This document shows, piece after piece, positions 8,601-11,600 of a stretch of 64,000 nucleotides of DNA (positions within the stretch are counted from its first letter, which is position 1; each line of letters opens with the position of its first letter). Where the stretch lies: assembly GCF_029227855.1 (NCBI RefSeq), contig NZ_CP074356.1. One strand, given 5' to 3'. The position numbers were made by a program. The DNA is from Escherichia coli (GTDB taxonomy: Bacteria > Pseudomonadota > Gammaproteobacteria > Enterobacterales > Enterobacteriaceae).

Positions 8601-11600
8601 CGCAAAAGTTATCTATTTGTTCAAAAAATGATTGAGTCTTGACTGGCTCATCCAATGTGGAAAAATGTGACTTTTATCACATAATAGTACTAAGTCTGAA
8701 TTTTCCGGGTTATCTCAAAATGGAATACGGTTCGACAAAGATGGAAGAGAGACTCTCTCGCAGCCCTGGCGGCAAATTGGCTTTGTGGGCTTTCTATACA
8801 TGGTGTGGCTATTTTGTCTGGGCAATGGCGCGTTACATCTGGGTGATGAGCCGGATCCCCGATGCCCCCGTGTCGGGATTTGAAAGCGATTTAGGCTCTA
8901 CCGCGGGAAAGTGGTTAGGGGCACTGGTCGGATTTTTATTTATGGCTCTGGTCGGGGCATTGTTAGGCAGCATTGCCTGGTATACCCGACCTCGTCCCGC
9001 ACGTAGCAGACGCTATGAATAAAAACTGCTAAGGTTGCGACTCTTTGGCAACGGGGCGCGTATGGACGTACAACACTGGCAGGCACAGTTCGAAAACTGG
9101 TTGAAAAACCATCATCAGCACCAGGACGCGGCCCATGACGTATGTCATTTTCGCCGTGTCTGGGCTACGGCACAGAAGCTGGCGGCAGATGACGATGTCG
9201 ATATGCTGGTGATTTTAACCGCCTGTTATTTTCACGATATTGTGAGCCTGGCGAAAGATCATCCGCAACGGCAGCGTTCTTCAATCCTGGCGGCAGAAGA
9301 GACGCGTCGCCTGCTCCGTGAAGAGTTCGTGCAATTTCCGGCGGAGAAAATCGAGGCCGTTTGTCATGCCATTGCCGCTCACAGTTTCAGCGCGCAAATC
9401 GCCCCCTTAACAACGGAAGCTAAAATCGTCCAGGATGCGGATCGGCTGGAAGCCCTGGGGGCGATTGGCCTGGCGCGCGTGTTTGCCGTTTCAGGGGCAT
9501 TGGGCGTGGCGCTGTTTGATGGCGAAGATCCGTTCGCACAGCATCGCCCGCTGGATGATAAACGCTACGCGCTGGATCATTTCCAGACTAAGTTGCTGAA
9601 GCTACCGCAAACCATGCAAACCGCAAGAGGCAAGCAGCTGGCGCAGCACAACGCGCAATTTTTAGTCGAGTTTATGGCGAAGCTCAGTGCCGAACTGGCG
9701 GGGGAGAATGAAGGTGTCGATCACAAGGTGATAGATGCGTTTTCACCCGCGGGCTGAGCGCGTGGCCCTAAATGGCTGTAATTATGTTAACCTGTCGGCC
9801 ATCTCAGATGGCCGGTTAAATCTATGCAGGAAAATATATCAGTAACCGATTCATACAGCACCGGGAATGCCGCACAGGCAATGCTGGAGAAACTGCTGCA
9901 AATTTATGATGTTAAAACGCTGGTGGCGCAGCTTAATGGTGTGGGTGAGAATCACTGGAGCGCGGCAATTTTAAAACGTGCACTGGCGAATGACTCGGCA
10001 TGGCACCGTTTAAGTGAGAAAGAGTTCGCCCATCTGCAAACGTTGTTACCCAAACCACCGGCACATCATCCGCATTATGCGTTTCGCTTTATCGATCTAT
10101 TCGCCGGAATTGGCGGCATTCGTCGCGGTTTTGAATCGATTGGCGGACAGTGCGTGTTTACCAGCGAATGGAACAAACATGCGGTTCGCACTTATAAAGC
10201 CAACCATTATTGCGATCCGGCGACGCATCATTTTAATGAAGATATCCGCGACATCACCCTCAGCCATAAAGAAGGCGTGAGTGATGAGGCGGCGGCGGAA
10301 CATATTCGTCAACACATTCCTGAACACGATGTATTACTGGCGGGTTTTCCTTGTCAGCCATTTTCGTTGGCTGGCGTATCGAAAAAGAACTCGCTCGGGC
10401 GGGCGCACGGTTTTGCCTGCGATACCCAGGGCACGCTGTTCTTTGATGTGGTGCGCATTATCGACGCGCGTCGTCCGGCGATGTTTGTGCTCGAAAACGT
10501 CAAAAACCTGAAAAGTCACGATAAAGGAAAAACGTTCCGCATCATCATGCAGACGCTGGACGAACTGGGCTATGACGTGGCTGATGCAGAAGATAACGGG
10601 CCAGACGATCCGAAAATCATCGACGGCAAACATTTTCTGCCGCAGCACCGTGAACGCATCGTGCTGGTGGGGTTTCGTCGCGATCTGAATCTGAAAGCCG
10701 ATTTTACCCTGCGTGATATCAGCGAATGTTTCCCTGCGCAGCGAGTGACGCTGGCGCAGCTGCTGGACCCGATGGTCGAGGCGAAATATATCCTGACGCC
10801 GGTGCTGTGGAAGTACCTCTATCGATATGCGAAAAAACATCAGGCGCGCGGTAACGGCTTCGGTTATGGAATGGTTTATCCGAACAATCCGCAAAGCGTC
10901 ACGCGTACGCTGTCTGCGCGTTATTACAAAGATGGCGCGGAAATTTTAATCGATCGCGGCTGGGATATGGCCACGGGTGAAAAAGACTTTGACGATCCGC
11001 TGAATCAGCAACATCGTCCACGTCGGTTAACGCCTCGTGAATGTGCGCGCTTAATGGGTTTTGAAGCGCCGGGAGAAGCGAAATTCCGCATTCCGGTTTC
11101 GGACACTCAGGCCTATCGCCAGTTCGGTAACTCGGTGGTCGTACCGGTCTTTGCCGCGGTGGCAAAACTGCTTGAGCCAAAAATCAAACAGGCGGTGGCG
11201 TTGCGTCAGCAAGAGGCACAACATGGCCGACGTTCACGATAAGGCCACTCGCAGCAAAAATATGCGCGCGATTGCCACGCGTGATACGGCGATTGAGAAG
11301 CGCCTCGCCAGTCTGTTAACCGGGCTGGGCCTGGCGTTTCGCGTTCAGGACGCCAGTCTGCCCGGACGCCCGGATTTTGTCGTTGATGAATATCGCTGCG
11401 TGATATTTACCCACGGCTGCTTCTGGCACCATCATCACTGCTATTTGTTTAAAGTGCCTGCGACTCGAACCGAGTTCTGGCTGGAGAAGATAGGTAAAAA
11501 TGTTGAACGCGATCGCCGCGATATCAGTCGCTTGCAGGAACTCGGCTGGCGCGTATTGATTGTCTGGGAGTGTGCGTTACGTGGGCGCGAGAAGCTGACG

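Follow-up and report, generated by a model that had tools for sequence, protein, structure and literature searches.

The dcm and vsr genes examined here are the chromosomal dcm-vsr pair of Escherichia coli, a real, conserved and ordinary locus. Dcm methylates the inner cytosine of CCWGG; deamination of 5-methylcytosine produces a T:G mismatch, and Vsr nicks 5' of the T, which leads to very-short-patch repair. We propose, with a probability of roughly three in four, that both genes are carried on one transcript, that vsr is initiated from its own AUG and Shine-Dalgarno (SD) sequence within a dispensable tail of dcm, and that Vsr output is coupled to the translation of dcm. The overlap of the two genes is already known, and nothing in the window (the whole 64-kb stretch of DNA analyzed, to which all coordinates refer) departs from the published E. 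coli locus.

Gene identities and locus organization

Four genes follow one another on the plus strand: drpB (yedR; 8741-9022) and yedJ (9062-9757; with an HD-domain match), both taken from annotation; dcm (9824-11242), an open reading frame for a DNA cytosine-5 methyltransferase of 472 aa; and vsr (11223-11693), the gene for the very-short-patch repair T:G mismatch endonuclease of 156 aa. The first-pass annotation had named the last two dcm and vsr, and these identities are borne out by NCBIfam and Pfam models, by the solved structure and by RefSeq annotation. The Dcm-specific NCBIfam subfamily model PRK10458 matches the methylase with 952.4 bits against a cut-off of 710, and Pfam recovers both PF00145 (DNA_methylase, 261 bits) and the N-terminal domain PF18284 (DNA_meth_N, 72 bits). 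The translation of 9824-11239 carries the C5-methyltransferase motifs I (FAGIGG), IV (PCQ, with the catalytic Cys), VI (ENV), VIII (QxRxR) and X (FGNSVVVP). For Vsr, the corresponding matches are PF03852 (Pfam; 133.5 bits, cut-off 27) and TIGR00632 (NCBIfam; 183.2 bits, cut-off 97.85). RefSeq/PGAP annotation places dcm and vsr at the same coordinates in strain JNEC-KY178, whose sequence departs from the window at 10 positions out of 64,000 (99.98% identical).

The E. coli Vsr residues to which Tsutakawa et al. 1999 reportedly assign a role are all present: D51, T63, H64, H69 and D97 (catalytic), C66, H71, C73 and C117 (zinc-binding), and F67, W68 and W86 (intercalating). The protein is ~99% identical to PDB chain 1CW0, the K-12 protein, with differences at 2 of 155 residues (Q35L and T131S). 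This near-identity to a characterized enzyme suggests that the Vsr of the window acts on T:G mismatches within CTWGG, nicking 5' of the T, and orthology to E. coli Dcm likewise suggests that its partner is a CCWGG methylase that modifies the inner C. The gene pair is the same locus as the K-12 dcm-vsr operon (Sohail et al. 1990; Hennecke et al. 1991; Dar and Bhagwat 1993), with which the window shares the order drpB-yedJ-dcm-vsr and a convergent yedA and from which it differs only in alleles, including the two Vsr substitutions. The 2.1-kb dcm-vsr region of the window shares 95-99% identity with that of most E. coli, and in only 19 genomes does the identity reach 99% or more.

The vsr start codon and the extent of the overlap

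The ATG at 11223 is the real start of vsr, because five lines of evidence agree on it. In the protein read from 11223, residue 1-2 is where the Pfam Vsr and TIGR00632 models begin, and chain 1CW0 starts at Ala2. Across 49 species, codon-periodic conservation sets in exactly at this ATG. The homologous position is ATG or GTG in 77 of 81 loci, the remaining four having a GTG one codon later. Finally, Vsr without its first 14 residues is described in the literature as functionally impaired. Two other candidate starts, a TTG at 11061 from a mechanical list of open reading frames and Met14 at 11262, are ruled out by the conservation and the solved structure.

Given that the vsr ATG is read directly at 11223-11225 and the dcm TAA at 11240-11242, the overlap is exactly 11223-11242 on the plus strand, as annotated. 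The 20 nt hold vsr codons 1-6 plus 2 nt and, at the same time, the last six sense codons of dcm (H G R R S R) and its stop, and dcm terminates 17 nt downstream of the vsr AUG. Since (11223-9824) mod 3 = 1, vsr lies in the +1 frame of dcm. The earlier claims that vsr starts 20 nt inside the 3' end of dcm, and that it does so in a different frame, are thus both correct, the first also by the RefSeq coordinates. The first-pass annotation had further described the arrangement as known biology, and indeed the overlap and co-transcription are treated as established in PMC4444293, PMC12907096 and bioRxiv 262964. PMC4444293 states that "dcm partially overlaps vsr" and cites Dar and Bhagwat 1993, a paper with the overlap in its title.

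A conserved SD core within a variable Dcm tail

A direct reading places an SD-like AAGAGG at 11211-11216 on the plus strand, 6 nt before the vsr ATG and within the tail codons of dcm, so that the SD and the AUG both fall within the last ~11 dcm codons. Among 49 species, the G at -10 is invariant (entropy 0 bits) and the A at -9 is nearly so (0.25 bits), while the rest of -25 to -1 is variable; G-10/A-9 of the SD core is the sole conserved island in the variable dcm tail. The predicted SD/anti-SD duplex is modest, at -5.8 kcal/mol; it ranks 43rd among the window's 70 genes, so its strength falls short of the median. The overlapped end of dcm codes for a methylase tail that is variable and dispensable, because Dcm stops 11 residues sooner (..AVKKR*) in the three species that lack the overlap and its tail sequence varies freely elsewhere.

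The dcm stop codon, TAA at 11240-11242 on the plus strand, is embedded in the conserved Vsr codons for Asp6-Lys7 (GAT AAG). Translation of dcm continues across the ribosome-binding site of vsr to the first available stop, the one that these two Vsr codons supply. In Siccibacter, a synonymous change of GAT to GAC abolishes this stop, and the overlap there is 35 nt long. Among the loci without dcm, too, GAT-AAR is the prevalent form, found in 15 of 17. The exact length of 20 nt is probably a by-product of the conserved N-terminal codons of Vsr and not a tuned parameter.

Conservation of the junction

Of 5426 complete E. coli genomes, 5319 have the 70-nt junction; its identity is 95% or higher in every one of these and 100% in 3282. 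Our comparative set comprises 81 loci, of which 64 are dcm-bearing Enterobacteriaceae loci (63 species loci and the window) and 17 are dcm-less. The overlap is present in 57 of the 64 dcm-bearing loci (57/81 of all), and the identical 20-nt form in 49/81; the lengths seen are 14, 17, 20 and 35 nt. K. pneumoniae has an overlap as well. Such wide conservation of junction and overlap shows that this is no accident of a single genome. The overlap has been lost in Cedecea colo, Enterobacter sp. Ag1 and Buttiauxella sp. B2, where vsr starts outside dcm with its own SD; in the window, by contrast, the vsr SD lies inside dcm. In addition, 17 of 80 Enterobacteriaceae species carry an intact vsr directly after yedJ with no dcm within 2.5 kb, namely in Kosakonia, Phytobacter, Pseudescherichia vulneris, some Enterobacter, K. 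oxytoca and K. indica. These dcm-less vsr genes retain all catalytic residues and have a stronger SD of their own. Given the three species without an overlap and the 17 with vsr but no adjoining dcm, the overlap is not obligatory.

Predicted mRNA structure at the junction

Folding predicts an mRNA hairpin at 11193-11251 (plus strand) that covers the SD and AUG of vsr as well as the stop of dcm, with tail codons of dcm as its 5' arm and vsr codons 2-9 as its 3' arm. The vsr start region (-30 to +33) has a minimum free energy of -22.0 kcal/mol, the most stable of the 70 coding sequences in the window (median -8.85), and a composition-corrected z-score of only -1.71. Against dinucleotide shuffles, the z-scores of 12 start regions of the overlap class are mostly non-significant, with a mean of about -0.6. 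RNAalifold on 30 species did not recover the hairpin and gave no conserved pairing over the SD and AUG. Covariation for the E. coli hairpin in 30 species, where 76% of cells pair, was no better than in slid controls; the one attractive pair (columns 35:84; CG in 6, GC in 6, UA in 4, UG in 2) is unpaired in 12 of the 30, and slid controls look alike. We therefore do not claim a conserved RNA structure at the dcm-vsr junction, as RNAalifold, z-scores and slid controls lend the hairpin no support beyond what composition gives.

Comparisons of overlap-class loci with the dcm-less and non-overlapping loci are confounded by GC content (0.60 versus about 0.52) and shared ancestry, and with this confounding the start regions are more stable with the overlap (-17.2 versus about -11.5 kcal/mol), the SD is weaker (mean -5.5 versus -7.6 kcal/mol) and the predicted unpaired probability from SD to AUG is the same across locus classes.

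A separate short hairpin in vsr codons 14-20 (11263-11282) resembles an intrinsic terminator on the minus strand (11281-11255). We rejected it as a conserved element because its stem is fixed by amino-acid codons and, of 71 distinct sequences, only 40 match at the single pair that is free to vary.

Translational coupling and its alternatives

The published explanation of the arrangement, translational coupling (Dar and Bhagwat 1993), is no more than consistent with the sequence, and it fits the modest SD, the stable predicted hairpin and the dcm-6 phenotype. According to PMC4444293, which cites the same work, vsr activity is also lost in dcm-6, a nonsense mutant with its stop at codon 45. This loss could also reflect Rho-dependent polarity: with such an early stop, about 1.3 kb would go untranslated, a good Rho substrate. 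In the literature searched, we found no text on translational coupling of vsr with dcm. In the proposed mechanism, ribosomes completing dcm would pass over the GC-rich structure at the vsr start, unfold it, and then terminate 17 nt past the vsr AUG; efficient Vsr synthesis would thereby depend on the translation of dcm. The weak SD would keep Vsr at sub-stoichiometric levels, an important point given that too much of the protein is mutagenic. In the 1993 study by Dar and Bhagwat, Vsr was reportedly made as a separate 18-kDa protein whose efficient synthesis required translation of upstream dcm sequence.

The alternative that survives best, though we consider it unlikely, is that the overlap is a neutral by-product in which free ribosomes start vsr at its own SD and AUG, dcm simply runs to the first stop, and the arrangement has no regulatory role. 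Much of the comparative evidence would fit: the SD core is conserved within an otherwise unconstrained Dcm tail, the dcm stop is dictated by Asp6-Lys7 codons that are the same GAT-AAR in dcm-less species, the overlap drifts in length and is lost in three species, distant methyltransferase-vsr pairs are linked yet gapped, overlapped by 1 nt or divergent, and the junction has no robust conserved RNA structure. Against it stand the loss of vsr activity in dcm-6 (PMC4444293), an SD of lower strength than that of loci with no overlap or no dcm, and a start region with the most stable predicted structure among the 70 genes. It also runs against the dependence on dcm translation that Dar and Bhagwat reportedly concluded in 1993.

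Also unlikely is a historical reading, in which vsr and not dcm would be the stable resident of the yedJ-yedA locus, with a possible methylase-independent role, and the E. coli overlap would be the trace of a dcm that was joined to, or has decayed away from, a vsr ribosome-binding site already in place. If so, the GC-rich hairpin and weak SD would throttle Vsr only where Dcm is present. The repair footprint does not separate dcm-bearing from dcm-less species, as every class shows the same strong depletion of CTWGG/CCWAG and of CTAG.

It is very improbable that vsr is transcribed mainly from a promoter in the 3' part of dcm and that the overlap reflects promoter placement rather than translation. 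A crude consensus scan of the plus strand between 9000 and 11223, covering sigma-70-type promoters only and uninformative alone, gave no sigma-70-like site. We found no positive support for such a promoter, although Vsr levels are reported to be growth-phase dependent. Full-length transcript sequencing (SMRT-Cappable-seq) finds yedR-yedJ-dcm-vsr to be one operon (bioRxiv 262964), co-transcription of dcm and vsr is reported in PMC12907096, and the polar effect of dcm-6 (PMC4444293) likewise argues against such a promoter. A programmed +1 frameshift in the overlap that yields a Dcm-Vsr fusion can be dismissed: although vsr occupies the +1 frame, in which the window has no stop for 162 nt upstream of the ATG, the open length ranges from 0 to 192 nt among species (0 in two), direct reading finds no prfB-like slippery codon with a properly spaced SD before the TAA, the vsr start codon and SD are conserved, and the crystallized, active Vsr is a free 156-aa protein.

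Related systems and significance

The interest of the overlap is purely that of a textbook example, in which a mutagenic modification enzyme and its repair enzyme are placed on one mRNA and kept together during inheritance. The shared mRNA probably ties Vsr output to Dcm output and keeps Vsr, mutagenic in excess, low. To this picture the comparison adds minor refinements: a Dcm tail that is dispensable, the island at the SD, the stop dictated by Asp6-Lys7, and the variants without overlap or without dcm. These natural variants could act as ready-made controls for tests of coupling.

Restriction-modification modules with a C5-methyltransferase and vsr resemble the window in that a Vsr homolog is linked to a cytosine-5 methylase for deamination repair, but they include a restriction endonuclease, whereas the dcm of the window is solitary. 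Their junctions are diverse. In the EcoRII-type M-Vsr-R module of Burkholderia phage KL3 the overlap is 1 nt, in an MvaI/BcnI-type module of Sphingomonas the genes are separated by a gap or possibly overlap by 8 nt, and in an AlwI-type module of Planococcus the methylase and vsr are divergent.

Ordinary overlapping or coupled genes of E. coli operons (ATGA/TAATG junctions; otsBA, fliGH and uvrYC in the window) are same-strand and out of frame, as dcm-vsr is, and the 64-kb window contains 14 such pairs. Most of these overlap by 1-8 nt, the only longer ones being otsB-otsA (26 nt), dcm-vsr (20 nt) and yecF-yecU (14 nt); dcm-vsr differs from the ordinary cases in terminating 17 nt downstream of the restart codon.

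Structure of the dcm-vsr junction

Our window, a piece of the E. coli chromosome, is collinear with positions 1987394-2051393 of NZ_AP045174.1 (strain JNEC-KY178) and differs from it at 10 of 64,000 bases, so the RefSeq annotation of that strain can be transferred base for base. On the plus strand, dcm (9824-11242; 472 aa) encodes a protein with the Pfam domains DNA_methylase and DNA_meth_N and a 952-bit match to the Dcm-specific NCBIfam model PRK10458. The vsr gene (11223-11693, +; ATG start, 156 aa) matches Pfam Vsr and TIGR00632, and its product carries two substitutions, Q35L and T131S, relative to E. 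coli Vsr of known crystal structure (PDB 1CW0). By direct reading, the vsr ATG occupies 11223-11225 and the dcm stop TAA 11240-11242; the genes share exactly 20 nt (11223-11242) with vsr in the +1 frame, and the RefSeq coordinates of both genes are the same. The first-pass annotation, which placed the vsr start 20 nt inside the 3' end of dcm in another frame, is thus exact to the base. It also described the overlap as known biology, and this is K-12's own dcm-vsr locus with allelic differences only. The overlap is real, was rightly interpreted and was already known, a partial overlap of dcm with vsr being stated in the literature (PMC4444293). Our additions are small: a dispensable Dcm tail, a Shine-Dalgarno (SD) island, and natural variants that lack the overlap or dcm itself.

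Several observations establish the ATG at 11223 as the true start of vsr. The Pfam Vsr and TIGR00632 models begin at Vsr residue 1-2, the first residue of the 1CW0 chain is Ala2, and removal of the N-terminal 14 residues impairs Vsr (PMC2715241). Among the 49 species that share this junction, conservation takes on the triplet periodicity of the vsr frame exactly at the ATG, and an ATG or GTG occupies the homologous position in 77 of 81 loci, the remaining four having a GTG one codon later. A downstream start at Met14 is excluded by the 1CW0 structure, the conservation pattern and the impaired 14-residue truncation.

In the 25 nt of dcm that precede the vsr ATG, all three codon positions vary among species, except for an invariant G at -10 and a nearly invariant A at -9. 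These two bases form the core of an AAGAGG SD-like element (11211-11216), 6 nt 5' of the ATG. Inside the overlap, variation tracks vsr wobble positions, equivalent to the first positions of dcm codons, so the Dcm tail is the passenger. Dcm ends 11 residues sooner (..AVKKR-stop) in the three species without overlap, and the tail (11 residues in the window) varies freely in others. The overlapped part of dcm thus encodes a dispensable tail, produced as dcm is read through the ribosome-binding site of vsr. The length of the overlap looks like a by-product. The dcm stop lies within Vsr codons Asp6-Lys7 (GAT AAG), and GAT-AAR codons also predominate without dcm (15 of 17 dcm-less species); in Siccibacter, a synonymous change of GAT to GAC abolishes the stop, and the overlap there reaches 35 nt. 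The exact 20 nt would then be set by the conserved N-terminal codons of Vsr.

Out-of-frame overlaps are common in the E. coli genome. Of 14 overlapping same-strand pairs in the window, only otsB-otsA (otsB 59716-60516, otsA 60491-61915; 26 nt) exceeds dcm-vsr; yecF-yecU (46063-46450) follows with 14 nt, and the other 11 share 1-8 nt.

Conservation and loss of the overlap

The 70-nt junction is present in 5319 of 5426 complete E. coli genomes, always with at least 95% identity and in 3282 with 100%, and both genes are annotated beneath the match in every listed hit. The window's dcm-vsr allele is comparatively rare: across 2.1 kb (window 9700-11800), just 19 of 5367 matching genomes reach at least 99% identity, with 5300 at 95-99% and 48 at 90-95%, and 59 complete genomes lack the region.

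We compared 80 species-level Enterobacteriaceae loci, whose Vsr proteins are 77-99% identical to that of the window (81 loci with the window). The identical 20-nt +1 overlap occurs in 49, a 17-nt overlap in four, a 14-nt overlap with GTG starts in two and the 35-nt overlap in two (Siccibacter), so that 57 of 64 loci with dcm show an overlap. Three loci have no overlap (Enterobacter sp. Ag1, Cedecea colo and Buttiauxella sp. B2; L076, L077 and L071): Dcm ends ..KKR-stop or ..MAK-stop, 12-35 nt before the vsr ATG, and a canonical GGAG SD is found there. In four other Buttiauxella species (L050, L058, L060, L062) dcm ends ~0.9-1 kb upstream of vsr, and the interval holds a minus-strand ORF (175 aa, 1537-2064, in L062).

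In the remaining 17 loci (L021, L027-L030, L035, L036, L042, L048, L051, L053-L056, L059, L061, L068; vsr at ~2501-2970), vsr is full-length and retains its catalytic and zinc residues, and dcm is absent within 2.5 kb. Among them are Kosakonia, Phytobacter, Pseudescherichia vulneris, some Enterobacter, K. oxytoca and K. indica. The majority have vsr immediately after yedJ, with its own strong SD (GGGAGG, AGGGGGAG). K. indica (L030) retains a dcm remnant with an internal deletion. K. oxytoca (L048) retains just the last 13 nt preceding the ATG (gagattaacc), the same as in K. michiganensis; dcm was therefore deleted or replaced recently.

In the window, CTWGG/CCWAG (32 observed, ~252 expected from base composition) and CTAG (34 versus ~500) are depleted, a pattern classically ascribed to very-short-patch repair, while CCWGG is no rarer than expected (155 versus 119). 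The depletion is equally strong in loci from dcm-less species, and thus has no visible dependence on a neighbouring dcm. That vsr is the stable resident of the locus, with a Dcm-independent role in these 17 species, strikes us as improbable.

In more distant methylase-vsr pairs, linkage is kept and the junction is not. Phage KL3 has an M-Vsr-R module with a 1-nt overlap, the two genes are divergent on a Planococcus plasmid, and they are unlinked in Caulobacter (PMC12907096); 5mC restriction-modification systems are commonly found together with vsr genes. A Sphingomonas paeninsulae plasmid (L085, 2501-2540) carries a MvaI/BcnI-type system with an annotated gap of 31 nt. Its annotated vsr ATG at 2540 corresponds to E. 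coli Met14; N-terminal Vsr homology reaches a TTG at 2501 and the dcm stop lies at 2506-2508, so the annotated start is probably too far downstream and the genes may overlap by 8 nt.

Probable translational coupling of vsr to dcm

Dar and Bhagwat (1993) reportedly found that Vsr is a separate 18-kDa protein whose efficient synthesis needs the upstream dcm sequence to be translated. The two genes are co-transcribed (PMC12907096), and sequencing of full-length transcripts assigns yedR(drpB)-yedJ-dcm-vsr to a single operon (bioRxiv 262964). According to the passage of PMC4444293 that cites Dar and Bhagwat 1993, vsr activity is lost as well in dcm-6, an allele with a nonsense mutation at codon 45. 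Translational coupling is the best-supported explanation, to which we assign a probability of roughly three in four, drawing mainly on the work of Dar and Bhagwat.

The serious rival is that vsr initiates independently and the overlap is neutral. The vsr SD is conserved, the Dcm tail is unconstrained, the overlap drifts in length and some species have lost it naturally; even so, we consider independent initiation unlikely. Rho-dependent polarity can also account for the loss of vsr activity in dcm-6. Transcription of vsr from an internal promoter finds no support in a crude scan for sigma-70-type sites (9000-11223, +), and an operon transcript is reported. A +1 frameshift yielding a Dcm-Vsr fusion is contradicted by the absence of a slippery site, the conserved vsr start codon and SD, and an upstream open length in the vsr frame that varies among species and is sometimes zero.

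Several sequence features fit coupling, which might operate through mRNA structure that masks the vsr start. The vsr SD (-5.8 kcal/mol) is of below-median strength (rank 43 of 70 window genes), and among the 70 start regions (-30..+33) that of vsr is predicted to fold most stably (-22.0 kcal/mol; median -8.85). The 5' arm of the predicted hairpin consists of dcm tail codons and the 3' arm of vsr codons 2-9, including the dcm stop; a ribosome completing dcm would necessarily melt it. Start regions of the overlap class fold more stably than those of the dcm-less or non-overlapping loci (-17.2 versus ~-11.5 kcal/mol), and the latter have the stronger SDs (mean -7.6 versus -5.5 kcal/mol); the classes differ in GC (0.60 versus ~0.52) and are phylogenetically clustered. 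Most z-scores fail to reach significance when dinucleotide shuffles are the reference (window, -1.71; one Klebsiella locus, -3.04), and RNAalifold found no consensus pairing over the SD/AUG. For covariation in the hairpin, the best candidate pair does not form in 12 of 30 sequences, and slid controls score equally.

Additional observations

The convergent genes vsr (+) and yedA (-) share 12 nt at their 3' ends (11682-11693); in K. pneumoniae the convergent overlap is 26 nt (L084, 2970-2995). Downstream of yedA, the first terminator-like site on the minus strand is reached after ~400 nt, within vsr (11281..11255), and yedA transcripts might thus extend antisense over most of vsr. As a conserved element this hairpin was rejected, since it is set by Vsr codons 14-20 and its covariation is unconvincing.

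Two PLSDB "plasmid" records appear chromosomal: NZ_CP074556.1 (L084), a 16-kb linear K. pneumoniae record with drpB-yedJ-dcm-vsr-yedA-yedI-dgcQ in chromosomal order, and NZ_CP141089.1 (H25), a 4.9-Mb E. coli record.

Elsewhere in the window, an intact porin gene annotated ompC (6897-8090, -) lies just downstream of a match to the small RNA rseX (8403-8492, -; Rfam RF01401, 96.7 bits), at the position that the pseudogene yedS occupies in K-12. The small RNA DsrA is matched at 16828-16914 (+; 102.5 bits), and a weak ES036/CssrF match (40062-40103, -; 42.1 bits, gathering score 37.6) lies just downstream of the flagellin gene (38516-39997). A mobile-element remnant adjoining fliE (29509-31046) comprises a 99-nt integrase fragment (29509-29607), a frameshifted DUF5503 pseudogene (29793-30927) and an 18-codon ORF (30990-31046, -), which RefSeq labels "AgrD family cyclic lactone autoinducer peptide", an odd label for E. 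coli.
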